27,711 bases of DNA from a virus. Positions 11,996-27,711 of the stretch are shown here, one piece after another. Both the position numbers and the translations under genes were made by a program. The notes below the pieces were generated by a model. The model was not told the DNA's origin, did no database searches, and saw only the letters and a list, made by a program, of their open reading frames with translations. Where the stretch lies: UHGV virus genome UHGV-0119636. The stretch is one strand, 5' to 3'. Numbering within the stretch: position 1 is the first letter of the stretch; each line of letters begins with the position of its first letter.

Positions 11996-12010
11996 AAATA
12001 TACCTCCTTT

Positions 12011-12560: not shown

Positions 12561-12607
12561 AGAGACTTCTTCCGATATATTGCTATACGGGAATTGTTCT
12601 CTTCTTT

Positions 12608-12638: not shown

Positions 12639-12679
12639 AAAATAGCCCAGGCGTTTAACCCGAGCTAATTCTCTTAAAC

Positions 12680-13048: not shown

Positions 13049-13073
13049 ATCAATAACCTCCTATAAGTTTATT

Positions 13074-13106
13074 CTCATAACAGGCGTTGTAATAATAGCG
13101 AAAAAG
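13074..13106 (-). promoter_or_regulatory. Conserved promoter/operator-like element, copy i
   Basis: Plus strand ctcataacaggcgttgtaataatagcgaaaaag. Confidence 0.5.
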
Positions 13107-13148
13107 AAGAGCCTAAGTCATTTCGACTCAAGCCCTTCCATTTTGAAA

Positions 13149-13532: not shown

Positions 13533-13556
13533 TTTGAACTCCTCCTTATATTCGTA

Positions 13557-13588
13557 TTTCATAATAGGGAATGTTATTTTTGCGACAG
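13557..13588 (-). promoter_or_regulatory. Conserved promoter/operator-like element, copy j
   Basis: Plus strand tttcataatagggaatgttatttttgcgacag. Confidence 0.5.
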
Positions 13589-13783
13589 ATCTACTCTAAG
13601 CATTACGTGTTTATCTTTTCGTAGCTTATATGCCTTACCACTATCTATTTCTAAAAATAAATACGGTGCTGAGTCTGGATCTGAGCTGTCTACTTTCAGT
13701 GTGCCGATTGGCTTTTTTACTAAGAGTGTCGTTGCCACAACTGCACCTATCAGCATACCTACTAATAAAAATAAAAGTTCCAC
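13574..13783 (-). CDS. Small membrane protein, 69 aa, GTG start
   Basis: SD AAAGGAGGAAG before the internal GTG at 13783 (track start 13849 has no SD); hydrophobic LLFLLVGMLIGAVVATTLLV. Confidence 0.45.
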   Translation of the reverse strand: MELLFLLVGMLIGAVVATTLLVKKPIGTLKVDSSDPDSAPYLFLEIDSGKAYKLRKDKHVMLRVDLSQK

Positions 13784-13943
13784 TACGCTACTTCCTCCTT
13801 TCTTCAATAGAATTGTTTTATCGAAAACTCCCTCCCGGGAAATTTTCACTTTAGAATTTTAATATTGTTTCCTGTCACCTATGTACGGAATATCTATTCT
13901 AGATTAGAGTTTGTTTTAATCTAGGTTAAAGAAAAAAGAGAGC

Positions 13944-14180
13944 CTAAGCCCTCTTATCTGTCATAAAACTTGGTAACTGAAGTTCTGGTTTATAAGTCAT
14001 TAACTCTGCTTCATATAGCCTCATGATAATAGCTATCTCATCTTCATGAATACTTTTTATCAACTTAAAGACTTTATCATAATCAACATCTGATTTATTC
14101 TTCATTTGACAAATATAATCCACGAGTCTGGTATACTTATCATCCGCAGTTCCTATCATTGCCGCAAATTTAACTTCCAT
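13944..14180 (-). CDS. Hypothetical protein, 78 aa
   Basis: SD AAGGAGGA; motif k upstream. Confidence 0.55.
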   Translation of the reverse strand: MEVKFAAMIGTADDKYTRLVDYICQMKNKSDVDYDKVFKLIKSIHEDEIAIIMRLYEAELMTYKPELQLPSFMTDKRA

Positions 14181-14213
14181 AATTTATCCTCCTTAAATTT
14201 AAAGTTTTATGTT

Positions 14214-14246
14214 TCTATAAAGTAGTATGTATTTTTGGCGAAAAAG
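14214..14246 (-). promoter_or_regulatory. Conserved promoter/operator-like element, copy k
   Basis: Plus strand tctataaagtagtatgtatttttggcgaaaaag. Confidence 0.45.
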
Positions 14247-14261
14247 AAAAGAAGAGACCGA

Positions 14262-14462
14262 TTAGGCCTCCTCTTTAAATAACTCAGGGTATTTCTCCAT
14301 CAGTTCTTTTCTGTCTCGTTCAATGTCTTTTTCTATATGCTCGATTTCTGCTTCCAATTTACCTGTGCTTTTACCTAAACGGTAACCCAGATAAGATCCT
14401 ACAGCATAAACCAATCCGGCATATAAACCAAAACCTAAACCAGCTTTTAAATTAGCTTTCAT
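14262..14462 (-). CDS. Small membrane protein with glycine-zipper helix, 66 aa
   Basis: SD AGGAG; GLGFGLYAGLVYAVGSYLGY; imperfect terminator hairpin overlaps the stop. Confidence 0.5.
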   Translation of the reverse strand: MKANLKAGLGFGLYAGLVYAVGSYLGYRLGKSTGKLEAEIEHIEKDIERDRKELMEKYPELFKEEA

Positions 14463-14486
14463 GATAGATCACTCCTATAATTTATT

Positions 14487-14516
14487 CTCATAATAGGCGT
14501 TGTTTTAGTCGCGATC
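14487..14516 (-). promoter_or_regulatory. Conserved promoter/operator-like element, copy l
   Basis: Plus strand ctcataataggcgttgttttagtcgcgatc. Confidence 0.5.
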
Positions 14517-14693
14517 ATCAAACGGTACTTCTATGTTTTCAATCTCGTCAGAAATAATCTCCCCGTCACCGATAAGTAGTTCTCTTTTGTTTATTTGATT
14601 AACGCTAGTTCGATATATACCCTCAGCTACTGCTAGTCCGATAAATGTACTTACTCCCCAAAGAATTCCTTTGATTAATTTATTAGTATCCAT
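14505..14693 (-). CDS. Small membrane protein, 62 aa
   Basis: Internal ATG at 14693 after AGAGGAAAA; hydrophobic GILWGVSTFIGLAVAEGI; its stop lies inside motif l. Confidence 0.45.
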   Translation of the reverse strand: MDTNKLIKGILWGVSTFIGLAVAEGIYRTSVNQINKRELLIGDGEIISDEIENIEVPFDDRD

Positions 14694-14773
14694 TTTGAAT
14701 TTTCCTCTCATGATATATTCTCTATTGGAAATCAAAAGGAAGAGTATCTGCATAGATACCCGCCTTTTTGTTT

Positions 14774-14989
14774 TTAATTATTGCTTGTGGTCCAACCCAT
14801 GTTGTTCTGTGTGAATGAGTTGTTAATGCCGTTGATAGTTCTTACTCTATCCTCGTACAATGAATTGTCGCTAATGATGCTAACTCCGAATTTCCATTTG
14901 AAGTCTGGAATTTCGTTAGCTGCTTTCATAGCTTCATCCCATTTCTCAAGGAAGACTTCTATCGCATATCCTCTCTCTACACTATCCAT
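14774..14989 (-). CDS. Hypothetical protein, 71 aa
   Basis: SD AGGAGGG; motif m upstream. Confidence 0.5.
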   Translation of the reverse strand: MDSVERGYAIEVFLEKWDEAMKAANEIPDFKWKFGVSIISDNSLYEDRVRTINGINNSFTQNNMGWTTSNN

Positions 14990-15016
14990 GTCGTTACCCT
15001 CCTTTATAATAATTTT

Positions 15017-15046
15017 CTATAAAGGAGCGTGTAATTTTCGCGAATA
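15017..15046 (-). promoter_or_regulatory. Conserved promoter/operator-like element, copy m
   Basis: Plus strand ctataaaggagcgtgtaattttcgcgaata. Confidence 0.5.
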
Positions 15047-15092
15047 TCTAATCCCGTGCATTAATCAACTTCAGATTCTCACTTCGTTCTAA

Positions 15093-15512
15093 TCAATCCC
15101 TAGCATTCGATAGCAGCCAAAAGAACCTTCTGTACCTGTCGTAATACATGTCTCTACCGCACGGAATATCTAACTTTGACCGCAGGTAAGTATACGATAA
15201 ACCCTCTGTAACCGCTTTTAAAATGTAATCGTACAAATAACGGTCTGCATCCAAAGCTATCCTCTCGATTAGATCGATTTTCTCTTTATAATAAGCTCTC
15301 AAGATTGCTCTCTTACCTGTTGGATCACCAGGCATATTGCTCGTTGGGATTTTCTCGATCATGGATAACGGTACAGAATGATCGTTAAAAGCAGCATAAG
15401 CACTCTTCCATATCGGATACTGTAAACAAAAATGTTTTAGTTCGTAATATCGATGTTTGCTAATCCAGTATTTGTTGTTCTCAGACAGCTCTGGACGTAT
15501 TCTTGTTGCCAT
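15093..15512 (-). CDS. Putative transcriptional regulator, RinA/ArpU-like, 139 aa
   Basis: Third gene of the Cro-like operon; ELKHFCLQYP and the basic C-terminus loosely recall phage RinA/ArpU activators (weak, from memory). Confidence 0.4.
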   Translation of the reverse strand: MATRIRPELSENNKYWISKHRYYELKHFCLQYPIWKSAYAAFNDHSVPLSMIEKIPTSNMPGDPTGKRAILRAYYKEKIDLIERIALDADRYLYDYILKAVTEGLSYTYLRSKLDIPCGRDMYYDRYRRFFWLLSNARD

Positions 15513-15651
15513 TTTGATTTTTCTCCTTCAATTTATTCTTCCTGCATTTATCTGCTTTCTTCATAAATTTAACAGTGGCTTTTTCCAACTTCTCTCTATC
15601 AACTTCTCCATAAACATTAACGATAGCATTCTTATAACGGTATGTTTCCAT
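15481..15651 (-). CDS. Possible small basic protein, 56 aa
   Basis: Found by hand between the Cro-like gene and the 139-aa gene; stop overlaps the next start. Confidence 0.3.
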   Translation of the reverse strand: METYRYKNAIVNVYGEVDREKLEKATVKFMKKADKCRKNKLKEKNQNGNKNTSRAV

Positions 15652-15653
15652 CA

Positions 15654-15863
15654 CTATTTACTCCGTGATAAGAATATGTCCAATGCTTCTAGGTTAGTTA
15701 ATCCAAGAACCTCTTTTAACTTAGCCGCTTCATTTACCGTAAATGCATCAAATCCATTTAGCTTACGATAAAAAGAAGATCTGTTGATGTCGATCAGATC
15801 AGCGGTCTTAGCCACGTTCAATCCCTTTTCGACTATCTTGCCTTTTAATTTATTCGCATTCAT
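15654..15863 (-). CDS. Cro-like small HTH regulator, 69 aa
   Basis: ATG at 15863 with SD GAGAGGTGA; helix-turn-helix-like LNVAKTADLIDINRSSFYRKL; divergent from the plus-strand repressor-like gene. Confidence 0.6.
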   Translation of the reverse strand: MNANKLKGKIVEKGLNVAKTADLIDINRSSFYRKLNGFDAFTVNEAAKLKEVLGLTNLEALDIFLSRSK

Positions 15864-15908
15864 GCACATCACCTCTCGCTGTATTTGTCGCTTATCTGCA
15901 ACAACACG

Positions 15909-15938
15909 AGAATATCACCAGCTTACTTTTTCTGTCAA
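15909..15938 (-). promoter_or_regulatory. Putative sigma-A-type promoter for the Cro-like operon
   Basis: On the minus strand, TTGACA (plus 15933-15938) then 18 nt then TATTCT (plus 15909-15914). Confidence 0.4.
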
Positions 15939-15987
15939 TAACTTTTTCGCATAAAACGAAAACGATTTATTCTAGAATACAATTTAT

Positions 15988-16016
15988 TTGCATATATGCG
16001 ATTTTGTGTGTATCAT
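15988..16016 (+). promoter_or_regulatory. Putative sigma-A-type promoter for the repressor-like gene
   Basis: TTGCAT, 17-nt spacer ending TGTG, then TATCAT; overlaps the palindrome GCATATATGC. Confidence 0.45.
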
Positions 16017-16088
16017 ATGGATTGATAAGAGAAGAATAAGAAAGAGTCCTAAGACTCATCTTCGCGATAGTATAAAGGAGTTAACCGA

Positions 16089-16685
16089 ATGACAATAGGA
16101 CAAAAAATAAAAGAATTACGCAATCAACTTAATATGTCGGTGGATGATCTTGCTGTGAAACTGGGTAAGAACCGTGCGACTATCTACCGCTATGAACGAG
16201 GAGATATCGAGAACCTCCCTCTCGATGTACTAGAACCATTAGCAAATGCTCTTGAGACCACACCTGGTTATTTAATGGGATGGGAAGAAACTACGAAAAA
16301 GAAAGAGCCTTCAATTATCGATGAAGTTACCATGGGTGACGTTTTTAAAGCGTTACGTCTAGGAAGTAATTTATCGATAGAGGAATTTTCGCATGAGATT
16401 GGATTATCTGCCCAAGACATAAGCAATTATGAAGCAGGAAAGACTCCTATACCTGTAAATATAATTAATCTTGTTGCTGATTTCTTTGGCATATCAATAG
16501 CGGAAATAGTTAAGGCACACAAAAACAGCGAAAATAGAACGCCTTCTGGTTTCGAAATGAAAAAGGAACGATTTGAACGTTTTAAAGTTTGGAATAAAGA
16601 GTTTGGACGAATACATTTTACTGATGAAGAAATCAATAAAATAATGGAATATACAAGGTTCTTACTTAGCCAAAGAAGACAGTAA
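16089..16685 (+). CDS. Tandem-HTH XRE-family repressor-like regulator, 198 aa
   Basis: SD AAAGGAG; two XRE-type helix-turn-helix units (residues about 1-65 and 80-140); no peptidase S24-like C-terminus seen. Confidence 0.75.
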   Translation: MTIGQKIKELRNQLNMSVDDLAVKLGKNRATIYRYERGDIENLPLDVLEPLANALETTPGYLMGWEETTKKKEPSIIDEVTMGDVFKALRLGSNLSIEEFSHEIGLSAQDISNYEAGKTPIPVNIINLVADFFGISIAEIVKAHKNSENRTPSGFEMKKERFERFKVWNKEFGRIHFTDEEINKIMEYTRFLLSQRRQ

Positions 16686-16770
16686 GTCTACATAGGTTTA
16701 CTCTATTTAAAGGAGGTGATGCCTGAATTCAGTTCATCGTAGAATTTACATCAAAGGAAAGGTGGAACCA

Positions 16771-18348
16771 ATGACAACGTTTGATATGAACAACGCTGTA
16801 GACAATGCGTTCGGTATGGACGTATATGCTATCTATCTTCGGAAAAGTCGAGCCGATGTAGAAGCAGAAAAACTTGGAGAAGGAGAAACACTAGCAAGGC
16901 ATAGAAAGATACTAACAGAACTTGCTGCTAGAAAAGGATTGTATATCGGTAAGATTTACGAGGAAATTGTATCTGGTGAAACAATCGAAGCTAGACCTGA
17001 AATACAAAAACTGATAGAAGATTGTTATAAAGGGAAATATAGAGGAATCCTAATAGTAGAAGTTACTCGTCTATCTCGTGGTAATCAAGGAGACGCTCAA
17101 AAAATACTCGACTGTCTCAAATATTCGAATAGAAACAATGGTGTATTAGTTATCACTCCTACTAAGACTTATGACGTTGCACACAGCCAAGAAGACGAAG
17201 AATATATGGAGTTTGAATTGTTTATGTCTCGTCGAGAATATAAGATGATTCAAAAGCGTATGGATCGTGGCCGTAAACAAGCAGTCGTAGAAGGAAACTT
17301 CATGGGTAGTTACCGTCCCTATGGATATGACATCTTAAAAACCAAGACCGGACGAACACTTATACCGAATGAAGATGAAGCTCCTATCGTGAAAATGATT
17401 TACGAATGGACAGTTAACGATAATTTATCTCCTTTCAAGATAGCTGAGCGTTTAACTAATATGGGTGTTCCTACTTATTATGGTGAGAAGGATTGGTCTA
17501 AAGAAACAGTTAAAACCATTTTGACGAATCAGACATACATGGGTAAAGTTCGTTGGAATGATCGAATGACTGTTAAGACTATGGTCGACGGAGAACTTAA
17601 AGCTACACGACCTCGTTCAAATCATTCCGATCACTTCATGCTATATGATGGAAAACATATGAAACACGCACTCGTCGACGAAGAAACATTCAAAGCAGCC
17701 TCCTCTCGCTTTCATAACGATAGGACAAGATCAAATCTAAAACTTGTTAATCCTCTTGCAGGACTTCTATTTTGTAAGAAATGTGGTAAATCTATGGGTT
17801 ATCAATCATATAGACATAAGAAAAACGGACCAATGGATCGATACAATCATAGACAGTCTGCTAATGGATGCAAGGTTAAGTCAGCAGTTGCTGAGGATGT
17901 TATAAAAGCTGTTATACATGCTTTGAAACTTTATATAGAAGATTTCGAATTTAAGTTAGACAACACTCCAGATGTTGACGAAAATTCAATCAATACGCAG
18001 CTCGAAGCTTTACAAAAAGAAATACGAAAATCCGAACGAAAACTTGCTAAGCTATTCGATTCTTGGGAAGATGAGAAGATAACAGATAATGAATTTGTTC
18101 AAAGGAAAGCCGTCCATAATCAGAAGATAGAAAATATAAAGAGGCAAATGGAAGAACTCGAATATTCGATACCAGAAAGAGAAGAATATGAGGATAAAAT
18201 AATATTGCTGTCTGAAGCACTTGTCGCTATCACAGACGAATCGCTTGACGCAGATATTAAGAACGAGTATCTTAAAAGAATCATTGATAGAATAGAGTTT
18301 AGTAGAGAGAATAACTCAGAGTTTATACTAGATATAGACTTATGCTAA
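16771..18348 (+). CDS. Large serine recombinase (integrase-type), about 525 aa
   Basis: ATG at 16771 after AAAGGAAAGG (track start 16762 is GTG); N-terminal YAIYLRKSR catalytic-serine region, Cys-rich zinc-ribbon CKKCGK...C, C-terminal coiled coil. Confidence 0.8.
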   Translation: MTTFDMNNAVDNAFGMDVYAIYLRKSRADVEAEKLGEGETLARHRKILTELAARKGLYIGKIYEEIVSGETIEARPEIQKLIEDCYKGKYRGILIVEVTRLSRGNQGDAQKILDCLKYSNRNNGVLVITPTKTYDVAHSQEDEEYMEFELFMSRREYKMIQKRMDRGRKQAVVEGNFMGSYRPYGYDILKTKTGRTLIPNEDEAPIVKMIYEWTVNDNLSPFKIAERLTNMGVPTYYGEKDWSKETVKTILTNQTYMGKVRWNDRMTVKTMVDGELKATRPRSNHSDHFMLYDGKHMKHALVDEETFKAASSRFHNDRTRSNLKLVNPLAGLLFCKKCGKSMGYQSYRHKKNGPMDRYNHRQSANGCKVKSAVAEDVIKAVIHALKLYIEDFEFKLDNTPDVDENSINTQLEALQKEIRKSERKLAKLFDSWEDEKITDNEFVQRKAVHNQKIENIKRQMEELEYSIPEREEYEDKIILLSEALVAITDESLDADIKNEYLKRIIDRIEFSRENNSEFILDIDLC

Positions 18349-18408
18349 ATGGTGGCTTTGCTGCCTGTAAGACCTGCACTAAAATGGTGTAGGTAACTTT
18401 TTCCCCGA

Positions 18409-18458
18409 CATATATATCATGGTTGTGTTTCTTTTATATCGCCACCATGATATATATC
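18409..18458. repeat. Inverted repeat CATATATATCATGG / CCATGATATATATG, 22-bp spacer; candidate attP or operator
   Basis: 13 of 14 bp match; sits just after the recombinase stop and before the small paralog genes; a second inverted pair TGGTGGC/GCCACCA flanks it. Confidence 0.3.
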
Positions 18459-18504
18459 ACAGGGAAACTATTCTAAACGTTGATATATCAAGGAGGAGAT
18501 ATAC

Positions 18505-18756
18505 ATGAGAATAGTATGGAAAGACAGTGCGCCTAAAACAAAACCTTGGTTGACGTTCAAATATAGAGAACATATCGTTAGCCAATATGGAGATGGATGG
18601 ATTACCGATATACCTGGTGATAACAATATCTATTTTCCGAGAGAGTGTGCTTATAATGCAATCGATAAGTCTCTAGGTGGAAAGACACGAAAAGCTAATC
18701 CTCAAAGACATAAATTAGGAATAAAAGTTATTGGTAGAAAGGACGATGTATCATGA
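18505..18756 (+). CDS. Small protein, MRIVWKDS family, copy 1, 83 aa
   Basis: Strong SD AAGGAGGAG; stop overlaps the start of copy 2 (ATGA). Confidence 0.6.
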   Translation: MRIVWKDSAPKTKPWLTFKYREHIVSQYGDGWITDIPGDNNIYFPRECAYNAIDKSLGGKTRKANPQRHKLGIKVIGRKDDVS

Positions 18757-19004
18757 GAATCGTATGGAAAGATAGTCATAAGCCAAAAGAATATGAACCT
18801 ATGAAATATCGAAATATTTACATCTTCGGTACTCCTGAAGGATGGGAAGTAAATATAAAAGGAGATAATAATCTATACAAGACTCATTACTGTGCTATGA
18901 ATGCGATTGATGATTACTTTGGAGATTTTGGAGAACGTGGTACAGAAAAACGTAAACGATATGGAATACAAATAATAGGTAAGAAAAATGATGAGACTGC
19001 ATGA
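18753..19004 (+). CDS. Small protein, MRIVWKDS family, copy 2, 83 aa
   Basis: Shares MRIVWKDS, GW, GDNN-Y, CA-NAID and GI-IG-K-D motifs with copy 1. Confidence 0.6.
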   Translation: MRIVWKDSHKPKEYEPMKYRNIYIFGTPEGWEVNIKGDNNLYKTHYCAMNAIDDYFGDFGERGTEKRKRYGIQIIGKKNDETA

Positions 19005-19012
19005 ATCTCAAA

Positions 19013-19046
19013 AGCCACTTCCTTTTCTGGAGGTGGCATATTTTTA
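19013..19046. terminator. Bidirectional intrinsic terminator between convergent genes
   Basis: Hairpin GCCACTTCC-TTTTCT-GGAGGTGGC followed by ATATTTTTAT; lies between the plus-gene stop at 19004 and the minus-gene stop at 19053. Confidence 0.6.
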
Positions 19047-19052
19047 TCTAGG

Positions 19053-19595
19053 TTAGACATTTCTATTTTCGTATGACGTAAATTTTACATTTGTGTACTC
19101 GTTAACCAAAAAGCTACATGCTTCATTAACTGTTTTAACGACGGATTCCCCTTCTATATAACTCTGATAATTCCTTCTTTGATTTTCAAATTTAAGATCA
19201 GGTTCAACCATGGTATCTACACTTAACCATATTAGTTCCGTAGTATAGTCTTCGGTAAAATATCCTTTTATAAAAACCTCTTTCTTTCCAACCGTTCCGA
19301 TTAGTTTTATAAACGACATATCATGCTTCGTCAGATTAAACGCATATCTTATTCCTTTTACATATTGCCCGCCAAGTTTCCTCGACTTAATTGTTTCATA
19401 GTAATTATCTTTATTGTTGTTCTTTTTATGCCACTCATCCGATATACAAATCCACATTAAAAGTTCGCTTAAAGTTGCAACCATGGATATGCTATTTTGT
19501 TTGTCGCTTGTGCTTAAATATTCATGAAATCTTTTATGAGATTCTCTTAATCCATGGTTTATATACATTAGCCTAAATTCTTCGACACTATTCAT
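19053..19595 (-). CDS. Hypothetical protein, about 180 aa, accessory (moron) candidate
   Basis: ATG at 19595 after SD AGGAGGA; no peptidoglycan-hydrolase motifs recognised; own promoter region with the palindrome GGAAATTTCC upstream. Confidence 0.55.
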   Translation of the reverse strand: MNSVEEFRLMYINHGLRESHKRFHEYLSTSDKQNSISMVATLSELLMWICISDEWHKKNNNKDNYYETIKSRKLGGQYVKGIRYAFNLTKHDMSFIKLIGTVGKKEVFIKGYFTEDYTTELIWLSVDTMVEPDLKFENQRRNYQSYIEGESVVKTVNEACSFLVNEYTNVKFTSYENRNV

Positions 19596-19662
19596 TATCT
19601 GCATTCCTCCTTTTATCGTAATATTCGACCATATAGGAGAAATTTCCTTTTAACCATATGAA

Positions 19663-19700
19663 GAAAAATAAAAGGGGCTGTTTTATTCGCCCCAATTATT
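19663..19700 (-). terminator. Intrinsic terminator after the lysis operon
   Basis: Stem GGGGC/GCCCC with A-tract and T-tract on either side, immediately after the stop at 19701. Confidence 0.55.
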
Positions 19701-20009
19701 TTACATCTTGTGTGAAATCTCCTCGCAATGCTTTTCCAATGATTTGATTCGTTCTTCGTGACCCTGATTTTGAATTTTCAGCTCGTCTATTTCAGATCCA
19801 TGATTCGTAACCCGAGTCTTCAAGTTATTAATCATCTCGGTCAAGAAGTTTATAGTCGCGTTGAGTTTGATTATGTTTTCGTTTAGCTTTTCGATAGGCT
19901 CATTTTTAGAATGTTCTTCCTGAGTAATATCCTTCCTCAGTTTCATATAGAAAGCGAACACTGAGCCTATGACTGTTAAGACAATGATTATAACTTGATT
20001 CTCTGCCAT
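19701..20009 (-). CDS. Membrane-anchored coiled-coil protein, 102 aa, lysis-associated
   Basis: N-terminal helix VIIIVLTVIGSVFAFY, then a coiled-coil-like remainder; start 3 nt after the holin stop. Confidence 0.55.
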   Translation of the reverse strand: MAENQVIIIVLTVIGSVFAFYMKLRKDITQEEHSKNEPIEKLNENIIKLNATINFLTEMINNLKTRVTNHGSEIDELKIQNQGHEERIKSLEKHCEEISHKM

Positions 20010-20011
20010 AG

Positions 20012-20305
20012 TTATTTTTCCTTCGCTGTATTATTATCGTCTTTCTTACCTTCTACAAATCTACTAAATCCCTGATGTAGACCTGTAGATGCCAGACCCA
20101 TAACTGCACCATATACGATGGAATCGACAGAGATGCCGCTTACTGCCGTATTCAATGCTGCGCCGACAACAGCCAGGATGACTGGAATATCGTCGTTAGG
20201 GATACGTTTTAAAAAAGTCGCATGTTTGATGATATATCCAACCACCAGACAAGCGACCATTACTACAAGTACGAAATGTTCAGTTAAAATTTTTGCGAAA
20301 TCCAT
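20012..20305 (-). CDS. Putative holin, 97 aa
   Basis: Three hydrophobic segments (FVLVVMVACLVVGYII, IPVILAVVGAAL, IVYGAVMGLASTGL) and a charged C-terminus; placed after the tail-fibre genes. Confidence 0.5.
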   Translation of the reverse strand: MDFAKILTEHFVLVVMVACLVVGYIIKHATFLKRIPNDDIPVILAVVGAALNTAVSGISVDSIVYGAVMGLASTGLHQGFSRFVEGKKDDNNTAKEK

Positions 20306-20329
20306 TTTGAATTACCTTCCTTTCTTTTA

Positions 20330-20965
20330 CTAATTAACTTTTTCCCATCCAGCAGGATATGCCTCAGGGGAGTACACGTTGTTATCGATAAGTGAAACGT
20401 ACTTCTCGTTATTGAATGTTATCTTATCTCCCTTTTTATATGCCGTCTCAGCGTTGATCGGCTGTTTAAATTCTGGATACTCAACGTTAGGATCTGAGAT
20501 TTCAACATACAAGGACGGAGAAACATCCGGCTTCCATTCTTCAGTAGATGTGAACGGATCTGACGCGACAACCTTATAGAATTTATCCTGATAGATAAAG
20601 CGATCTCCTTTGCTATATGTAACTCCCACAACATATTCCGGATACATATATCTCATAATATAAGCATCTTTGTCAGAAGCTTGTTTAAGTGTAAGATCGA
20701 ACTGCAACTCTTCAAGTTTCTTAGTTCCTTCTTCGATAGCTGCTTCTTTTTCTTTTTCTTTCAGGATATTATTGTAATGCTCTTCGTCATAAACTAGATG
20801 GTATTTCTTATCCTCTTCGTTAAGTTTCAAAGCATAACAATGTAATTTGGAAAGATCCACAACAGTATCATCGAGAATCGCACAAATATAATTATTGCGT
20901 AATTGACGAAGAGAAATGTTAGTTATCTCTCCATTGACGTTTTCCGCTTCAACATAAACATTCAT
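20330..20965 (-). CDS. Hypothetical tail/lysis-associated protein, 211 aa
   Basis: ORF track; C-terminal repeated YSKGDRFIYQDKFYKVV / YKKGDKITFNNEKYVSL units. Confidence 0.55.
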   Translation of the reverse strand: MNVYVEAENVNGEITNISLRQLRNNYICAILDDTVVDLSKLHCYALKLNEEDKKYHLVYDEEHYNNILKEKEKEAAIEEGTKKLEELQFDLTLKQASDKDAYIMRYMYPEYVVGVTYSKGDRFIYQDKFYKVVASDPFTSTEEWKPDVSPSLYVEISDPNVEYPEFKQPINAETAYKKGDKITFNNEKYVSLIDNNVYSPEAYPAGWEKVN

Positions 20966-20981
20966 TGCTCATCACCTCCCC

Positions 20982-21317
20982 TTAAACATCAACAGCCCCC
21001 GTATAGGAAGGCTGAGTTTTTAACCAATCGTATGCATTTTGAATTAGATCGCCTATAAGTAGTTTCTGAGCCTCATCCCATTCAATGCTAAGATAATCCA
21101 TGTTGGTGTATGGAAAAGATGGCTCTCCTATGATTCTACCAGCCATATAATCCTTATCGTATTGACGACCTTCTTTATCAATGTACGATTCTACAATAAT
21201 AGTAGCTCGCTGATTAATTTCTACGTTAATGGCGGCAATATGATGATAGCTTACTACTACACCATTAGCGGTTTTAATGTTTACTTCTATAGCCAAAATA
21301 TCACTCCTAAACTCCAA
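20982..21317 (-). CDS. Small tail-fibre-associated protein, 111 aa, paralog of the 23747-24028 gene
   Basis: Shares YH-I, IN-, SYID and AY-LKT-P--GA-D motifs with the 93-aa protein; follows a fibre gene. Confidence 0.6.
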   Translation of the reverse strand: MEFRSDILAIEVNIKTANGVVVSYHHIAAINVEINQRATIIVESYIDKEGRQYDKDYMAGRIIGEPSFPYTNMDYLSIEWDEAQKLLIGDLIQNAYDWLKTQPSYTGAVDV

Positions 21318-22440
21318 TTACTTGTCTAAGAACAAACCTGTTATTGGTATAAGCAACTCCATTGTTTCCCTGTCCGGTATAGTTATTTTCAACCCCACCG
21401 GTGAGTTTGCCATCAGATATGTTCAATACTTTAACACTCGCATATCCGCAAACTTCAGACATAAGCGTGAAACACCACGGTTTTCCTGAGTATGTAGAAA
21501 CAGCGCTTTTAGGCACGAAGAAGCTATGTAATCTTGTATTAGTAGCAGACCCATTATAATAGTCAGAGAATATCAATACGATTCCATGAGGTTGATTTGA
21601 TACAGGGCTACTAAAAGTTATGGTATGAGTATTACTCGGCCATAAACTTCCGGTCCATAGTGTATTATTTGTAAACCTTTCGGTAACTGAACCTCTTACA
21701 AAGCCATTATCAGCAGTAAACGTCATAGCAGTTCTGATACTGTGAGGGGAATATGAATCTGTTGGGGTCATGAGAAAATAATTTTCGCTACTCCCATCAA
21801 CTTTTCTAGCAAACATTTTTACTGTAGGACTGACTCCTCCTCTATCCCCTTTAACGCTAACATAAGAAGCCACACCATCGTGTGACTCAAAATTTGCTAA
21901 CATATCAGCAATATCTGCTCTTAATACCACGCGATACTCTCCATCATAGCGGCTAGTGTAAATTGTTTCAGTAGTTGAGGCAGCATTAGCTTCGTATGTA
22001 ATGATTGGATCATCATCATCTTCGAAATAAACGAGAACATCGTCTGTAAATGCTTCATCGTTTTCGATGACTAAAGTACCTTTTACAGTAGATATCTTAC
22101 CTCTACCGTTATTCATGGATATTACTGTATTATCTGAATTTTTCCCGAGATCTATTAACGATTCACCAAAAGTAGCCAACTCAGTAATTCCGTTTCTCAT
22201 TTCGATGTCTGTACTACTAATAAGAATATTTCTGCCAAGAGTTGATGTTCTCTTATCAGCAACCATAAGTCCATTAGCATCGAAACCGAGGAAGTTTGTA
22301 GCGGTTTTAGCAGCTTCTACAGCCTGACCATAAGGATCAATCCAGCTACTCCATGTTGAAGTTGAAGTTCCAACACGCCAATATTCTTTTCCAGTACCTT
22401 CGACTTTGGCTGTCTGTCTCGGATATTTTTGTACGGCATA
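21307..22440 (-). CDS. Tail fibre / receptor-binding protein, C-terminal segment; frame open upstream of its first ATG
   Basis: Frame is open from the TGA at 22441-22443 to the stop at 21307; the 58 codons before the first ATG (22266) are protein-like (GTGKEYWRVGTSTSTWSSW) and match the fibre repeat module. Confidence 0.55.
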   Translation of the reverse strand, partial: YAVQKYPRQTAKVEGTGKEYWRVGTSTSTWSSWIDPYGQAVEAAKTATNFLGFDANGLMVADKRTSTLGRNILISSTDIEMRNGITELATFGESLIDLGKNSDNTVISMNNGRGKISTVKGTLVIENDEAFTDDVLVYFEDDDDPIITYEANAASTTETIYTSRYDGEYRVVLRADIADMLANFESHDGVASYVSVKGDRGGVSPTVKMFARKVDGSSENYFLMTPTDSYSPHSIRTAMTFTADNGFVRGSVTERFTNNTLWTGSLWPSNTHTITFSSPVSNQPHGIVLIFSDYYNGSATNTRLHSFFVPKSAVSTYSGKPWCFTLMSEVCGYASVKVLNISDGKLTGGVENNYTGQGNNGVAYTNNRFVLRQVIGV

Positions 22441-23726
22441 TCAGTTCGTAAATGACAGTAAGTCCCTACTCCAGACAATCCTATAGTAGAACAATACTTG
22501 AATTCGGCAACTGATGTACTAGGATAATTATTTATGTAATATAGCGGCGGGTAATTCGAATTTTTGGTATCTTTTACGTCAAGTCCGTCGCCTTTTGGTC
22601 CTTGTGGTCCAGTAGGTCCTTGTGGTCCTGTTGCGCCTGTACTACCAGTTTCTCCTCGTGGTCCAGTAGGTCCTTGTGGTCCAGTGGCTCCTGTGGCTCC
22701 GGTGTTACCAGTAATACATACACCATTAGATGATGGAGTATATGATGTAGTGTTGTCTGTGTACGTTACCAGTGTTCTTCTCCAAATATACTTTCCATCA
22801 GCCCACGTAGGTTGACTCGTACTCCATGATCCACCTGTTAATGTTGTCGGGGAATTGGATGAATAGAACTGTTCTTGTGTACTTTTTATGGTAGAACCCA
22901 GTGTTACGCTCAATCCATTAGCAGTCTGTTCTAGAGTAGAGACCTCGCCTTCCAAATCTGTTACTTTCGAACTTAAACCACTGGCAGTCTGTTCTACCGT
23001 ACTAACCCTGTTTCCAAGAGAAGTAGTTTCCTGTACATTTGCTTCTATTCTGTCAGCATTTTGATCGATACTGGATTTAGCGTTTGTTAGATCTGTAGTG
23101 AGCTTCGATACATCCGAAGTTAAGCCATCAGCAGTCTGTTCAAGCGTGCTTGTCCTGACACCTAATTCATTTGTGGCGTTCACATTTGCTGTAATACGTT
23201 CTCTTTCTATGTTCAGATCAGCTTCGTACTCCGTTCTGAGGTCATTCACGGCTTCCCATGAACTATCACAAACTGGGCTTGTGTATGCATTTGACGTTGG
23301 GTTCTTATACGTAATGAGATATCTCGTCCATAAATACATACCAGTAGACCAGGTAGGCATGGAAGTTACCCATGACCCGCCTGTCTGTGTTGTTTTGGAA
23401 GTGCTTAAATAATATTGCTGAGTGATGCTATCAATGCCAGTACCAGTAGGACCCTGAGATCCTGTTGCCCCGTCGGTTCCATTCTTAGGTATGTAAGATA
23501 CTGAATATGTTGTAGATGTATCACCCTCTGTATATGTAATGACGGTTCTGCTCCACAAATACTGTCCAGGTGATACAGAGGGGATTGTCGTACTCCATGT
23601 ACCGTTTGGAGGATTTGTGCCTGACGTACCAGCCTGATAAGTTATGACTGTGGATGTAATTCCCTTGCCGTCTATTCCGTCTATAATGTCCGAGATAGTA
23701 ACCTCGGCTTTAGCTATCACAGCCAA
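22317..23726 (-). CDS. Tail fibre protein with collagen-like Gly-X-Y repeats, 469 aa in this frame
   Basis: TTG start after SD AAAGGA; GATGATGPQGPTGPRGETGSTGATGPQGPTGPQGPKGDG; repeated LEQTA-GL and GGSW-TS-PTW modules. Confidence 0.7.
   Translation of the reverse strand: MAVIAKAEVTISDIIDGIDGKGITSTVITYQAGTSGTNPPNGTWSTTIPSVSPGQYLWSRTVITYTEGDTSTTYSVSYIPKNGTDGATGSQGPTGTGIDSITQQYYLSTSKTTQTGGSWVTSMPTWSTGMYLWTRYLITYKNPTSNAYTSPVCDSSWEAVNDLRTEYEADLNIERERITANVNATNELGVRTSTLEQTADGLTSDVSKLTTDLTNAKSSIDQNADRIEANVQETTSLGNRVSTVEQTASGLSSKVTDLEGEVSTLEQTANGLSVTLGSTIKSTQEQFYSSNSPTTLTGGSWSTSQPTWADGKYIWRRTLVTYTDNTTSYTPSSNGVCITGNTGATGATGPQGPTGPRGETGSTGATGPQGPTGPQGPKGDGLDVKDTKNSNYPPLYYINNYPSTSVAEFKYCSTIGLSGVGTYCHLRTDMPYKNIRDRQPKSKVLEKNIGVLELQLQHGVAGLILMVRL
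22585..22712 (-). repeat. Collagen-like nucleotide repeats inside the fibre gene
   Basis: ggtccttgtggtccagtaggtcc occurs twice with related units between. Confidence 0.5.
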
Positions 23727-23746
23727 ATAACATCACTGTCCTTTCT

Positions 23747-24028
23747 CTAAATATCTGTAGCTCCCTCGAATTCAGGAAGTGTTTTAAGATACTCATATGC
23801 AAGTTCAATTGTCATATTAGGACTATAATCTGTCTCATAAGTCTTGCTCTTTTTATAAGCAACAGAATCGAATGTGTCTTTTTCGTCATTCCTTGCATGT
23901 TCATCAATGTATGAGAGAACCGCTATGGAATTCTGCCGATTGATTGTCGACTGAATAAATAAGATTCTATGATAGTTTGTAGTAACGCCGTCCAGTTGTT
24001 TAATAGCTTTACATAATGCCATAATCAT
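23747..24028 (-). CDS. Small tail-fibre-associated protein, 93 aa
   Basis: Paralog of the 20982-21317 gene; follows the 594-aa gene. Confidence 0.6.
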   Translation of the reverse strand: MIMALCKAIKQLDGVTTNYHRILFIQSTINRQNSIAVLSYIDEHARNDEKDTFDSVAYKKSKTYETDYSPNMTIELAYEYLKTLPEFEGATDI

Positions 24029-24036
24029 CAGTCTCC

Positions 24037-25821
24037 TTAACTAAAAGTAATCTTTCCGTCCCAATATATACCAATAGCATCATTGTTTGTTACATTTGTT
24101 GTGTTAGTAAAAACTACTTTAATATAAACACCAACTCCATATGTAGCGTACGTATCATATGAATCGGGTTTCACATAAACAGAAGCAGCCGATCCGTGTG
24201 TATACTTAGTGTTCTGCCTTAATACAAAACCGTCCAAACTGGTAGCCGTTGCAGTTGGTGATCCTATTATTGGTTTTGACATAGGAACCCAGAATGAAAT
24301 ATCTCTGCCGGAATTAGTCACATAACCAGCAGTTCGTAATGTTATCGAAATGGTATCTCCACGCGAATAATATGGTTTGTATGTACCTGGACTAGCCAAG
24401 TCACTAATACCAAATGTTATGTTATGACCATAAATATTCGTGTTGCCCGTTCTAGCATCCCAGTTTCCATACCCGACAATAGTATTACCATATTGGTTCT
24501 GAGCCTGGAATGCTTCGTGATAAGTCCCATCGGTAGCATTTTTAGCTATAATGGAATTCGGAGAATCCAGAACCACATCTTGCCTAAAATAAGCTTTATA
24601 ATTAACATCAAAAGCGTCATTTAACTCAGCTGGTTTACCAATTGATACACCTTTTCCTCCAGCTTTAAAGTCGATAGGAAATCTAGCACCACCAAGAGTT
24701 TTCTTAACCGATGTAGTACCATTCTTACTATCAGTTACTTTAATTGTGAATTCATAAGATTTATCAACGTTTAACGCATTATCTCCTACTACTACAGAAG
24801 CGCTTCCACTATTACCAGATGCAGAGATGGTTTTCGTGTTGGTCAACCATGACACAGTTACTGATGTTACCGGGTTTGATCCGGTTAACTGACTACAAGA
24901 CCAATTAAATGTAATCTTACAATAAGTTCCGGTTTCCTGTGTCGTACCGCTTGAATTACAACGAGTAACTTTCACGCTTGATATAGTTGGAGGCTTATAC
25001 GCAAGTTCCCATACAGCGTAAAGAGTAATAGCAGCATTTGAAGTATAGTTAGCTCCTGCCGCATAAGCTACAGCACCTGTCGCAGACTTAGCCCAACCTT
25101 TAAAGTTATAGTTCGTCCTGGTAGGTTTAGTAGTTGATAATTTAAGAGTTACACCGTACGTTTTCGTTTGCTGTGCAGGTGCTCCACTTCCTCCGTTAGC
25201 ATTATAAGTAACTTTGTAAGTGATAGCCTGCCATACCGCATAAAGAGTAACACTCGCATTTGCTGTATAACTTGCCCCAGCAGCATAAGCCACACCCCCA
25301 GTAGAAGATGTGGCCCAACCTTTAAATGTATATCCTGTTCTCGTAGGTTTTGTAGACGATAATGTAATGTTTGTTCCATGCCATTTTGTCTGTTGAGATG
25401 GAGCACCTGAACCTCCGTTTGCGTTATAACTAATCTTATAGGAAGTTTTAGCCGCAACCGAGATCGATCCACTGGCAGTCTTAGTTCCAGCGTAGGTTCC
25501 GCTCCATGTGAAATTCATTTCAAAGGAGAACCACAAAGCGATAGATCTTGCTGATGTTCCCTTTGTAATAGTTACGGTTCCACTTGTAATTGTCTGAGAA
25601 CTTTTACCACCTATGGAGAATGTTCCAGATTTAACAACTTTACCATCTATTTTGACACTGTAATTTTTCGCAACGCTAGAGTTAACAGTATATCCATGAG
25701 TTACCCATTTGAGTGTCCAAGAAAGTGTGGCAGTGGTTGCAGTACTACTTGACTGAGTTACTACAAGTTGAACCTGCGGACAGGATGAACTACCAAATTG
25801 TGCCGTTGTTAAAGTTGCCAT
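24037..25821 (-). CDS. Tail protein with two Listeria-Bacteroides-type repeat domains, 594 aa
   Basis: Two about 70-aa repeats (YKISYNANGGSGAP...KPTRTGYTFKGWA...LYAVWQ and YKVTYNANGGSGAP...KPTRTNYNFKGWA...LYAVWE); start overlaps the upstream stop. Confidence 0.7.
   Translation of the reverse strand: MATLTTAQFGSSSCPQVQLVVTQSSSTATTATLSWTLKWVTHGYTVNSSVAKNYSVKIDGKVVKSGTFSIGGKSSQTITSGTVTITKGTSARSIALWFSFEMNFTWSGTYAGTKTASGSISVAAKTSYKISYNANGGSGAPSQQTKWHGTNITLSSTKPTRTGYTFKGWATSSTGGVAYAAGASYTANASVTLYAVWQAITYKVTYNANGGSGAPAQQTKTYGVTLKLSTTKPTRTNYNFKGWAKSATGAVAYAAGANYTSNAAITLYAVWELAYKPPTISSVKVTRCNSSGTTQETGTYCKITFNWSCSQLTGSNPVTSVTVSWLTNTKTISASGNSGSASVVVGDNALNVDKSYEFTIKVTDSKNGTTSVKKTLGGARFPIDFKAGGKGVSIGKPAELNDAFDVNYKAYFRQDVVLDSPNSIIAKNATDGTYHEAFQAQNQYGNTIVGYGNWDARTGNTNIYGHNITFGISDLASPGTYKPYYSRGDTISITLRTAGYVTNSGRDISFWVPMSKPIIGSPTATATSLDGFVLRQNTKYTHGSAASVYVKPDSYDTYATYGVGVYIKVVFTNTTNVTNNDAIGIYWDGKITFS
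25009..25440 (-). repeat. Tandem ~210-bp direct repeat encoding the two repeat domains
   Basis: Copies at about 25009-25218 and 25228-25440 are highly similar at nucleotide level. Confidence 0.6.
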
Positions 25822-27194
25822 TATGAATCACTTCCTTTCCAAATGAGACCCATGTTACCGTTACTGCGCTCTGCAAATGCAAATCCGCCAAATGCTAATT
25901 CATCCTCAACTTCTGCTTTTCCGATTTTTAACGATTGGTTAGTTACATATGCCGGGACGGTTGTACCATCCATGAATTTTATAGCTGTATTGGTGATTAG
26001 AACTTTAAACGAACTCTCATTTCCAAGCTCAATGCACGGTTCGTCTCCATCAGTTGTGATTCGAATATAATTCGTTAACTCTTCCAAACCTGTCACAGCA
26101 TTTTCCAATGCAGTGATATCTCCACCTTGAGCGTCAATATCATTCTCCAAAGACTTTATTCCATCAATAGCATTCTGTAATTGAGTTAAAGTCTCACCCA
26201 TAGAAAATATCCATCCACTTGATGTTTGCTCTATTAACGAAGCTCCGCTACCGTCAACAACCATGGTAGATATTGAATCAGCTATCTGTGAAATCCTAGA
26301 TTCTGCTTGTTCGATACGTTCAGTCAATCTATCGGCTGCATCTTGAGCAGCATTTTCCGCTGCTTCTAAGCCATTAGATGACGCTAAATCTTCCGGAGCC
26401 GGTGTCCAGTCGGTTGCTTTGTTTCCGAGTTCGAATTTAACATTTCGAATTTTGCAACCTACCTGTGTTGGACAATATATCTCTATTTTGTTACTACTAA
26501 TCAAGTCAGTTCCTTCTTCTCCTTTATCAGCAACGGTAATGTCCAATTCTTGATGTACCCAAGTAGTTCCAACAGCCTGGATTGAATTGTTTATAGTCAT
26601 TACATATCTGGGTGTTCCGTTCGTATTATATACATTGCAAGTTGTACTTCCGTTTGGACTAACGATATCAAAACTCATTTTGACTTTTTCCCCAACGAAG
26701 TTACTCATAGGAACTGTCAGATTATAAAATTGTGAAAAAGAACCTGTATCTTGATATGTTGCTAAGACATATTCATTATTTTCATCAAATGGTAAACCAC
26801 TACGACCATCACCATCATAATCAACGTCTCTTGTTCCGAAATAGTTTCTTCCTCCTATTTCAAGTCCGTCAATCTTATTATTAGTGCTATTCGCAGTGTT
26901 CTGTGCATTAACCGCTTTGTTGTATGCCTGCTTCGCCGCTTCATACGAGCTCGATTTCGAAACTGACGAATATCTAAAATTCCCATTTGTAAATACAGTA
27001 CAATCCACGAAATATAAAGTATTAGTAGATCCAGCACTGTATGAAGGTTCCGTCAATGACCAATTACCGCCTGGCGGATTACTTGTGGGTTTGGCCGGGA
27101 TGTTGGTAGTAGACGATTGTAACAGATAATATCGAGTTACAGATTCTATATCAACGATATGGGATATTGTTATCTCGGCCTTCCCCCTAATCAT
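25821..27194 (-). CDS. Tail fibre / baseplate-associated protein, 457 aa
   Basis: SD AAGGAG; N-terminus MIRGKAEITISHIVD matches the N-terminus AKAEVTISDIIDG of the 469-aa fibre; C-terminal coiled-coil-like region. Confidence 0.65.
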   Translation of the reverse strand: MIRGKAEITISHIVDIESVTRYYLLQSSTTNIPAKPTSNPPGGNWSLTEPSYSAGSTNTLYFVDCTVFTNGNFRYSSVSKSSSYEAAKQAYNKAVNAQNTANSTNNKIDGLEIGGRNYFGTRDVDYDGDGRSGLPFDENNEYVLATYQDTGSFSQFYNLTVPMSNFVGEKVKMSFDIVSPNGSTTCNVYNTNGTPRYVMTINNSIQAVGTTWVHQELDITVADKGEEGTDLISSNKIEIYCPTQVGCKIRNVKFELGNKATDWTPAPEDLASSNGLEAAENAAQDAADRLTERIEQAESRISQIADSISTMVVDGSGASLIEQTSSGWIFSMGETLTQLQNAIDGIKSLENDIDAQGGDITALENAVTGLEELTNYIRITTDGDEPCIELGNESSFKVLITNTAIKFMDGTTVPAYVTNQSLKIGKAEVEDELAFGGFAFAERSNGNMGLIWKGSDS

Positions 27195-27204
27195 ATTAAG
27201 CTCC

Positions 27205-27711
27205 TTACTGCTCTAACTGAGCGGTATAAACTACAGAATTAGTAACCTCAGCCGCTGATACGCTCAATGTCTTACTGGTTTTAATTGCTGTAGTTGATCC
27301 CTGTTTATACCATTTAATACTTCCAAGAGATCCGCATACTCCGGCGTCCGTGATTGACTGTTCAATAGCGCCTTTAAATACATGAGCTGTTAATACAGTA
27401 GAGCCGGAATTGTTCTTAAATATAGTTCCGTTTGAGGAAGTAATGGTAATTGTAATAGCATCAGCTCCAGCATTACCCTGAGCACCTGTTGCTCCATGAG
27501 TTCCGATGATTGCTGGAGTAGAAGAAGCTGTCTGACCATTTGTATATGTAGTCTTCTGATATGACCAAATATATTTGTTTGTTGTTGTAGTTGCTGTCGG
27601 TGTAGTTGACCATCCACTTGTAGATGTAGTCACTCCACTTGATGCGGATGTTGTAAGGTAGAAAGTTTCAACCTTCGATATGCCATTACCTGTAGCACCT
27701 GTCTGACCTGT
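27205..27711 (-). CDS. Tail fibre-like protein, C-terminal part (gene continues beyond window end)
   Basis: Frame is open to the window edge; Gly-X-Y stretch TGQTGATGNG and module TSTSGWSTTPT...KYIWSYQKTTY. Confidence 0.6.
   Translation of the reverse strand, partial: TGQTGATGNGISKVETFYLTTSASSGVTTSTSGWSTTPTATTTTNKYIWSYQKTTYTNGQTASSTPAIIGTHGATGAQGNAGADAITITITSSNGTIFKNNSGSTVLTAHVFKGAIEQSITDAGVCGSLGSIKWYKQGSTTAIKTSKTLSVSAAEVTNSVVYTAQLEQ

Follow-up and report, generated by a model that had tools for sequence, protein, structure and literature searches.

A 13-base deletion interrupts a single tail-fibre gene in one metagenomic contig of a gut phage

The two overlapping reading frames in the tail-fibre region of the phage genome analyzed here (UHGV-0119636; a stretch of 27,711 nucleotides, hereafter the window) are best explained as one ordinary fibre gene of 810 residues, broken in this contig alone by a 13-base deletion, and we regard the break as a lesion or an artefact and not as programmed frameshifting (with a probability of about 0.93). 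The deletion, its private status, the intact siblings and the broken domain are all matters of direct observation. The region carries a single receptor-binding tail-fibre gene of a temperate, siphovirus-like gut phage, which in its intact form is one open reading frame of 810 codons. The encoded protein begins with N-terminal host-specificity repeats, followed by a coiled coil and a third repeat module; next come a collagen-like GXY triple-helix segment and a compact knob of about 90 residues, and a neck leads to the distal, putatively receptor-binding head. Only in this contig has a stretch of 14 nt (GATACTAGCGGAGG), located in a loop between two β-strands of the knob, given way to a single A, a change that eliminates the conserved DTSGG loop, shifts the frame by -1 and fuses AAA, A and A into an A5 run. 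The contig as written encodes a truncated product of 433 native and 36 nonsense residues, in which the knob is only half present and neither neck nor receptor-binding head follows, and the 319-aa 'gene' downstream is the 3' remnant of the fibre, opened by an internal Met and lacking a ribosome-binding site. This explanation involves no recoding.

As they stand in the contig, the frames agree in most respects with what the initial annotation had described. The upstream frame (ORF1; 22317..23726, minus strand, TTG start) encodes 469 aa and stops at 22317, and the downstream frame is open from 22440 (stop TGA at 22441-22443), ends at 21307 and presents its first start codon, an ATG at 22266, only after 58 codons. 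These 58 codons, which had been described as encoding module-like protein sequence, do represent real protein, matched by homologues at 55-69% identity over the knob domain. A coding-strand A5 run (T5 at 22426-22430 of the plus strand) lies where the two frames overlap, and translation confirms that a -1 shift there, in which one A is read twice, connects ...TDMPYK with KYPRQTAKVEGTGKEYWR..., as had been proposed. The anticipated length of the fusion (840-880 residues), on the other hand, has to be corrected, since the fused -1 product computed here has 806-807 aa and the intact siblings are called at 810 aa. The A5 tract is unremarkable in itself: the window, with a GC content of 37.5%, contains 144 A/T runs of at least 5 nt, and five A5 runs are present on the fibre coding strand alone.

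The proposal that both frames derive from one fibre gene split by a frame change is upheld by near-identical siblings, in which a single ORF is read. Four other assemblies of the same phage, 99.9-100% identical to the window, are uninterrupted at the junction and encode 810 aa where the gene is complete. In ERZ19693800 (L005/L015/L029, an 11x MEGAHIT contig), the fibre is called as 810 aa and the only differences with respect to window positions 183..27711 are one SNP (26232) and the fibre indel; the junction is also intact in ERZ1755184 (L003/L006), ERZ1755062 (L016/L019) and ERZ1755516 (L021), and a 90%-identical relative (L002; fibre P0043, 992 aa) carries TDMPYKDTSGGYPRQTAKVE in a single frame. 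The comparison of the two junction alleles (TACAAAAATATCC versus TACAAAGATACTAGCGGAGGATATCC) reveals TACAAA-GATACTAGCGGAGG-ATATCC in the siblings and in this relative and TACAAA-A-ATATCC in the window, so that 14 nt have been exchanged for 1 and the gene is 13 nt shorter, a length not divisible by three. Near relatives carry AAAGAT... at the site and have no A5, which is found in the window because the 13-nt net deletion fused AAA, A and A. The A5 run is therefore a deletion scar; it does not represent a conserved slippery site, nor does it stem from a miscounted homopolymer. The dN/dS ratios against L002 are 0.135 upstream of the break and 0.18 downstream, the latter value implying that the downstream frame was under purifying selection until recently.

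The same alignments bear on a single-base homopolymer miscount, by which a true A6 would have been sequenced as A5. Although the frame change does lie inside a homopolymer, where a sixth A would bring the frame back, an A6 allele is found nowhere, and the intact 15 nt GATACTAGCGGAGGA, encoding DTSGG, stand opposite AA in the window (22426..22427, minus strand; DNA alignments with L002, L003, L005/L006, L015/L016 and L019/L021), a difference of 13 nt and not of 1. Homopolymer errors at A5 are rare in short-read data, and the contig names indicate short-read assemblies (SPAdes and MEGAHIT), all of which makes a miscount highly improbable. Of the options contemplated in the initial annotation, a pseudogene or an error comes closest, in the form of a private, frame-breaking 13-nt net deletion that would represent either a real defective variant or an artefact of low-coverage assembly or of the library. 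A homopolymer-length error is not supported, given that the intact allele differs from the window by a change of 14 nt to 1 nt and not by A5 versus A6.

The position of the gene within the tail module, between tail/baseplate-type genes and a holin, together with its host-specificity modules, its GXY repeat and its distal head, identifies it as a tail fibre. The native N-terminal part (433 codons; 22428..23726, minus strand) aligns residue by residue with the intact P0043 and comprises three 'GGSW..P.W..G.Y.W.R' host-specificity-type modules, a coiled-coil stalk, the GXY repeat and the first half of the knob; it shows a P22 gp26 coiled-coil match, and PHROG tail-fibre/host-specificity families match residues 12-153. 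The collagen-like GXY repeat (residues 337-386, approximately; 22569..22718, minus strand) is recognized by collagen-like tail-fibre PHROGs and by Pfam Collagen (PF01391; residues 340-379, E 1.3e-6). Beyond the scar, translation of ORF1 continues into an out-of-frame tail of 36 meaningless codons (NIRDRQPKSKVLEKNIGVLELQLQHGVAGLILMVRL) and a stop (22317..22427, minus strand), over DNA that encodes conserved knob sequence in another frame in intact relatives. The C-terminal part of the fibre (372 codons and a stop, now in the -1 frame; 21307..22425, minus strand), delimited by translation and homologues, contains the remainder of the knob (YPRQTAKVEGTGKEYWRVGTSTSTWSSW...), followed by the neck (ATNFLGFDANGL...) and then by the distal receptor-binding head, and phrog_7389 (tail fibre) matches residues 683-804 of the fused fibre. 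Two small ORFs flank the gene on the same strand, one of 91-93 aa upstream (23747..24028) and one of 104-111 aa, according to gene calls, directly downstream (20982..21317). Both match phrog_5084 and are paralogues, and they may act as fibre-assembly helpers.

The deletion takes out a conserved DTSGG loop midway through the compact domain that follows the collagen repeat, here termed knob. This domain is continuous in all the homologues that cover it (32 of 32), none of which has a shorter loop, and across 34 aligned sequences the loop positions are conserved as D in 26, S/T in 27, G in 23 and G in 30. In an AlphaFold2 (AF2) model of P0002, a 39%-identical homologue and not the window protein itself, the knob is modelled with a pLDDT of 79-89 and the break maps to the loop between strands 69-75 and 87-92. 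The break thus falls inside a conserved folded domain, and the ORF downstream of it is without translation signals of its own. Among PDB structures, the P0002 model is best matched by 9j1l, the side fibre of monocin (Foldseek E 2e-6), with 23% identity and an rmsd of 2.4 over 123 aligned columns. This match probably belongs to the confident C-terminal head (pLDDT about 75-94) and, at the level of the homologue's model, it would support a receptor-binding role for the part of the fibre orphaned by the deletion.

ORF2 as given by gene callers (319 aa; 21307..22266, minus strand) starts at an internal Met of the fibre: its ATG (22266) is an internal residue, within GLMVADK, in every intact relative, and no purine-rich Shine-Dalgarno is present in the sequence upstream of it. 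ORF2 is not an independent gene. A genuine two-gene arrangement, with the fibre stalk and the receptor-binding head translated independently, has a precedent in distant relatives (about 39% identity; P0002-P0014, locus L001) that split the fibre into two genes, the downstream one endowed with a proper GGAGG ribosome-binding site and an ATG. In those relatives, however, the split precedes the collagen repeat and leaves the knob whole, whereas here the knob is cut in two. Likewise, the absence of a start codon for 58 codons and of a Shine-Dalgarno before ATG 22266, the out-of-frame sequence at the end of ORF1 and the single ORF of siblings at 99.9-100% identity make such an arrangement extremely improbable in the window. 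Two genes with a proper downstream start, which the initial annotation had set as evidence against a frame change, hence do occur, but in distant relatives only and with the boundary before the collagen repeat, not in the knob.

A short (469 aa) and a long (about 807 aa) fibre isoform would be expected if ribosomes were programmed to shift by -1, or if transcription slipped, at the A5. Such a mechanism would be in keeping with the overlap of the frames at the A run, with the restoration of homologous sequence by a -1 (or +2) shift and with the purifying selection on the downstream frame. Nevertheless, the A5 occurs in no near relative, having been created only by the deletion, and every relative encodes the region as a single ORF. 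In particular, the two-frame arrangement is absent from the four 99.9-100% assemblies, the 90%-identical relative and 32 more distant homologues; the comparison with orthologous fibres suggested at the outset has thus been run and finds near-identical and distant relatives uninterrupted. The zero frame reads CCG UAC AAA AAU AUC, in which C AAA AAU departs from the slippery heptamer X XXY YYZ at its first position, and the 136 nt from the site onwards, searched for a stimulatory RNA structure, fold no better than shuffles (MFE -27.2 kcal/mol versus a shuffle mean of -29.1; z = +0.53; 138 of 200 shuffles at least as good). Efficient slippage of RNA polymerase needs runs of about 7-9 nt or more, for which an A5 is too short, and the run here measures 5 nt. 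Finally, both products would be defective, the short one ending in half a domain and 36 nonsense residues and the long one lacking the DTSGG loop. The programmed slippage initially put forward is hence very unlikely on several counts (single-ORF relatives, no A5 in them, a deviating heptamer and an unexceptional fold). Spontaneous -1 or +2 slippage on AAAAA may still take place at a low level, with a product that would also be devoid of the conserved knob loop.

As for the origin of the deletion that breaks the single fibre gene, we place roughly even odds on an artefact or single-molecule event in a ~3x metaSPAdes assembly and on a genuine defective variant that makes up a minority of the phage or prophage. 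With cov_2.99 in its name, the window is a contig of about 3x coverage assembled by metaSPAdes. Out-of-frame deletions private to a single contig are also present in sister low-coverage SPAdes contigs (L008, 17 and 7 nt; L016, 13 nt), and MEGAHIT contigs contain none of this kind. The L008 deletions, at L005 positions 2260-2276 (17 nt) and 7449-7455 (7 nt), coincide with the ends of a MEGAHIT contig, L010 (L005 2280 and 7449), which points to thin or ambiguous read support. In the MEGAHIT contigs that carry the private SNP of the window (26232), the segment corresponding to window positions 22158-22692, including the junction, is unassembled. The deletion allele may be common in the sample behind the window. 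The 14-to-1 change is a complex deletion-insertion, which is not a typical Illumina error. Repeat slippage and an overlap join by the assembler's gap closer were considered and rejected, as the flanks match the ends of the deleted segments at chance level (2-7 of 8-20 positions for each deletion, with a microhomology of 1-2 nt).

Were the four short out-of-frame deletions real variants living side by side in one gut phage or prophage population, this population might be unusually deletion-prone or deletion-selected, which seems unlikely to us; examples would be a resident prophage whose adsorption genes are knocked out time and again, or defective particles accompanied by intact helpers. A comparable degree of doubt applies to the notion that the deletion is real and selected, in such a way that the phage or prophage repeatedly inactivates its adsorption apparatus, as in defective or domesticated gut prophage variants. 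The same fibre gene has been struck twice independently (13 nt in the window, 7 nt in L008), but these two strikes are not significant (rough P of about 0.1) because much of the compared DNA belongs to the fibre. Similarly, the 17-nt deletion of L008 affects another, neighbouring tail-region gene, yet one of the four deletions (13 nt, L016) lies in a small early-region gene and not in a tail gene. The complex nature of the change, atypical for a sequencing error, and the missing signature of an overlap join also speak for selected deletions, against which it must be weighed that every deletion is private to one ~3x run-level assembly and that those of L008 fall at contig ends of another assembly. 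Furthermore, the consecutive run accessions (ERR1293630-ERR1293632) and the 100% identical phage suggest that the runs probably stem from one sample, between the runs of which the deletions would not have been reproduced. The assembly of the window, ERZ1755778, probably derives from run ERR1293631 of PRJEB12449, whose MEGAHIT contigs have the private SNP at 26232 in common with it; PRJEB12449 corresponds to a US colorectal-cancer faecal metagenome cohort (PMC8813618).

No match to the fibre region was obtained by megablast among 50,697 phage records. When the fused protein was compared with the phage collection by tblastn, the N-terminal repeats and the collagen segment were recovered only, never the junction; Pfam has no family for the knob, neck or head, and these parts likewise match nothing in that collection. 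A search of the genome collection for the host retrieved only one distant match, in a Clostridia MAG (49% identity over the N-terminal part), and exact-pattern scans for both junction alleles in IMG/VR and GTDB genomes found nothing. Exact look-ups showed ORF1, the 810-aa protein and the fragments to be absent from the protein collection, and a search with the out-of-frame tail peptide for independent contigs bearing this lesion produced no candidates, a negative that carries no information because the collection is also without the intact protein. The 319-aa ORF2 call is already present in public protein collections as P0001.

The finding is ordinary, whether the deletion is a real variant or an artefact. 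It does carry a caution, for a frame break at a short homopolymer of a metagenome contig can mimic recoding, and it was sibling comparison that showed the homopolymer to have been made by a 13-nt deletion. Regarding annotation, the 469-aa and 319-aa calls should be treated as fragments of one 810-aa receptor-binding fibre. If the deletions in the window and its sister contigs are real, they would reflect a within-host decay of the prophage adsorption module, a modest result and not a novel one.

Among known systems, the fibres of Streptococcus thermophilus, Lactococcus (BK5-T, bIL286, bIL309) and Enterococcus phages have N-terminal modules 46-51% identical over about 120 residues (tblastn) and share the PHROG 'tail fiber; host specificity' families, as well as GXY repeats of the collagen type and a modular architecture, but the match to them is restricted to the N-terminal modules and the collagen segment. 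The likeness to the monocin (Listeria tailocin) side fibre 9j1l lies at the level of the fold, concerns one domain only and is seen through the model of the 39%-identical homologue. Programmed -1 frameshifting in the lambda G/GT tail assembly chaperone and in T7 gene 10A/10B is alike in its overlapping tail-module frames and in a -1 join at identical bases. In systems of this type, relatives retain both the slippery heptamer and the two-frame arrangement, and each of the two products has a function, whereas here the tract is absent in relatives, the heptamer does not conform, no stimulatory structure accompanies it and a folded domain is cut. The closest parallel is provided by frameshift-mutated prophage tail-fibre genes and by indels in low-coverage metagenomes, in which a short out-of-frame deletion likewise gives rise to two apparent ORFs. 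As in those prophage fibre genes, the downstream part starts from an internal Met and intact alleles persist in sibling genomes, and we see no substantive difference from them, the only unusual traits being that the change is a complex one, from 14 nt to 1 nt, and that sister low-coverage contigs have comparable private deletions.

The split gene encodes the tail fibre of a temperate phage sampled in a human gut metagenome, and the frameshift site within it is not a genuine functional element. On the minus strand, ORF1 (23726..22317) encodes 469 aa from a TTG start, and the ORF2 frame is open from 22440, directly after a TGA (22443-22441), to 21307, running for 58 codons without ATG, GTG or TTG up to its first start, an ATG at 22266. 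Window coordinates and translation confirm the proposal of the initial annotation that these overlapping frames can be joined by a -1 shift at a coding-strand A5 run (plus-strand T5, 22426-22430), which connects ...TDMPYK to KYPRQTAKVEGTGKEYWR...; the fused product, however, amounts to 806-807 aa by translation, and not to the anticipated 840-880 residues. Such tracts are commonplace here: the window has a GC content of 37.5% and 144 A/T runs of at least five nucleotides, and five A5 tracts are found in the fibre coding strand.

The N-terminal modules of the fibre match PHROG 'tail fiber protein; host specificity' families and are 46-51% identical over ~120 residues to host-range proteins of Streptococcus, Lactococcus and Enterococcus phages. 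The protein also contains a coiled coil similar to the P22 gp26 needle, a collagen-like GXY segment (PF01391), a post-collagen region that matched no Pfam family and a C-terminal part matching phrog_7389 'tail fiber protein'. Among Firmicutes phages, it joins the collagen-repeat host-specificity fibres as a new member, and its unannotated knob-neck module is common to many gut phage fibres. Neighbouring genes encode tail proteins, a holin, a serine-recombinase integrase and an HTH repressor-like protein. The large serine recombinase (16089-18348, plus strand; 525 aa as called, with Resolvase, Recombinase and Zn_ribbon_recom domains) adjoins the gene for a 198-aa HTH protein, and the presence of both indicates a temperate element, which sibling contigs of 82-95 kb suggest to be integrated in a bacterial genome. 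Two small paralogous minus-strand ORFs matching phrog_5084 (23747-24028 and 20982-21317) each sit after a large tail-module gene, coding respectively for a 594-aa Flg_new-repeat protein and the fibre, and may be dedicated assembly helpers.

A search with the post-collagen part of the fused protein returned 41 relatives. Thirteen proteins of 454-460 aa scored full-length, 12 of them spanning the whole query at 37-40% identity, and among the rest are proteins similar in the knob and neck alone (53-69% identity), which carry different heads (Gp10_C, Peptidase_S74). The stretch ...GVGTYCTLMTTVPWTDTSGGYPKQTAKVESTGKEYWRVGTS... is unbroken in all of these relatives, and the window reads ...GVGTYCHLRTDMPYK / KYPRQTAKVEGTGKEYWRVGTS..., 4-5 residues short exactly at the break (slash); hence, the frame change lies inside one conserved domain. 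In a 34-sequence alignment the loop missing from the window is conserved (D in 26, S/T in 27, G in 23 and G in 30 sequences), and is never shorter in the homologues that cover the region. An AlphaFold model of the distant homologue P0002 (knob pLDDT 79-89) places the missing residues in a loop joining strands 69-75 and 87-92; the top PDB hit for this model, the Listeria monocin side fibre 9j1l (123 aligned columns), appears to belong to the confidently modelled C-terminal head. In contig L001, from ~39% identical relatives, the fibre is naturally encoded by two genes (L001 4903-7374), but their boundary precedes the collagen repeat: the first gene encodes 364 aa with the repeats, and the second, which has a GGAGG-ATG start of its own, encodes 457 aa comprising the collagen segment, an unbroken knob, the neck and the head.

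Closer relatives locate the lesion precisely. The 992-aa protein P0043, which falls in the 90% cluster of ORF2, reads ...TDMPYKDTSGGYPRQTAKVE... in a single frame, and its contig, L002, is syntenic with the window at ~90% DNA identity; at the junction, L002 has CCGTACAAA GATACTAGCGGAGG ATATCCGAG and the window CCGTACAAA A ATATCCGAG. An 81.9-kb, 11x MEGAHIT contig from virtually the same phage (ERZ19693800; L005/L015/L029) differs from window positions 183..27711 only by a SNP at 26232 and the junction indel, and its fibre gene is called as a single 810-aa ORF. The junction is likewise intact in ERZ1755184 (L003/L006), ERZ1755062 (L016/L019) and ERZ1755516 (L021). The split therefore results from the replacement of 14 nt by one, which costs 13 nt net and is confined to the window contig. 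The A5 run is a by-product of the deletion, composed of AAA, the substituted A and the A of ATAT. A conserved slippery tract is thus ruled out, the A5 having been made by a deletion private to the window, and so is an A5-versus-A6 miscount, since the intact allele differs by 13 nt net. Among the interpretations first put forward, only that of a pseudogene or error stands, whereas intact siblings and the 13-nt loss discard programmed slippage and homopolymer miscounting. Compared with L002, dN/dS is 0.135 before the break and 0.18 after it; the latter value indicates that purifying selection acted on the downstream frame during almost the entire divergence, a pattern that fits a very recent lesion.

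P0043 (L002 4046-7024) further differs from the window fibre by six additional GXY-type residues and by an extra module of ~176 residues that separates the second N-terminal repeat from the coiled coil (window 23200-23250), a case of module exchange between fibres that are otherwise collinear. The public protein collection represents the cluster including this intact relative by the 319-aa orphan P0001 (21307-22266) and contains neither the intact 810-aa protein nor the 469-aa ORF1.

The window is a metaSPAdes contig with ~3x k-mer coverage (ERZ1755778 NODE_485_length_27711_cov_2.987), with sibling contigs from PRJEB12449, a US colorectal-cancer cohort (PMC8813618). Its first 84 nt do not align to sibling contigs and positions 85-182 show 23 mismatches and three small gaps, the remaining 27.5 kb being almost identical; positions 1-182 resemble a variant or chimeric contig end within a 1408-aa DUF5906 gene. 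Two sister SPAdes contigs from ERZ1755062, also at ~3x and otherwise 99.9-100% identical, carry private out-of-frame deletions: L008 (NODE_1978) lacks 17 nt in a 524-aa tail-region gene (L005 2260-2276) and 7 nt in the same fibre gene (window 23367-23373, L005 7449-7455), and L016 (NODE_1426) lacks 13 nt in a 127-aa early gene (window 13158-13170). Neither contains insertions or in-frame indels, and MEGAHIT contigs of the same phage show no indels. One of the latter, L010 (ERR1293632), which was probably assembled from the same reads as L008, spans L005 2280-7449, and both its ends fall 0-4 nt from the L008 deletions; the deletions thus sit at gaps in coverage or branch points of the graph, suggesting thin or ambiguous read support. 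ERR1293631 MEGAHIT contigs carrying the private SNP of the window cover 14749-19988, 19968-22158 and 22692-26280, leaving the junction in an unassembled gap (22158 to 22692). On the other hand, flanks and deleted ends share no similarity beyond 1-2 nt in any of the four deletions, and the window change is a complex deletion-insertion, both of which disfavour a simple assembler artefact. The odds between an artefact and a real defective variant are roughly even; whichever the origin, the other assemblies carry the gene in its intact 810-aa form.

Programmed -1 frameshifting, as in lambda G/GT or T7 10A/10B, resembles the window site only in its two overlapping frames, and every testable defining feature of such systems fails here. 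The zero frame reads C AAA AAU, departing from the X XXY YYZ heptamer, and efficient RNA-polymerase slippage requires runs much longer than five A's. The 136-nt segment that begins at the site is no more stably folded than shuffled sequence (z = +0.53; 138/200 shuffles at least as stable), no Shine-Dalgarno sequence was found before the ORF2 ATG, and the corresponding Met is an internal residue (GLMVADK) in every intact relative. A short isoform would finish with only half of a domain and 36 nonsense residues, and a long one would be devoid of the conserved loop, so that either would be damaged. The closest known counterparts are ordinary frameshift lesions in structural genes of prophages, or indel errors in low-coverage assemblies.
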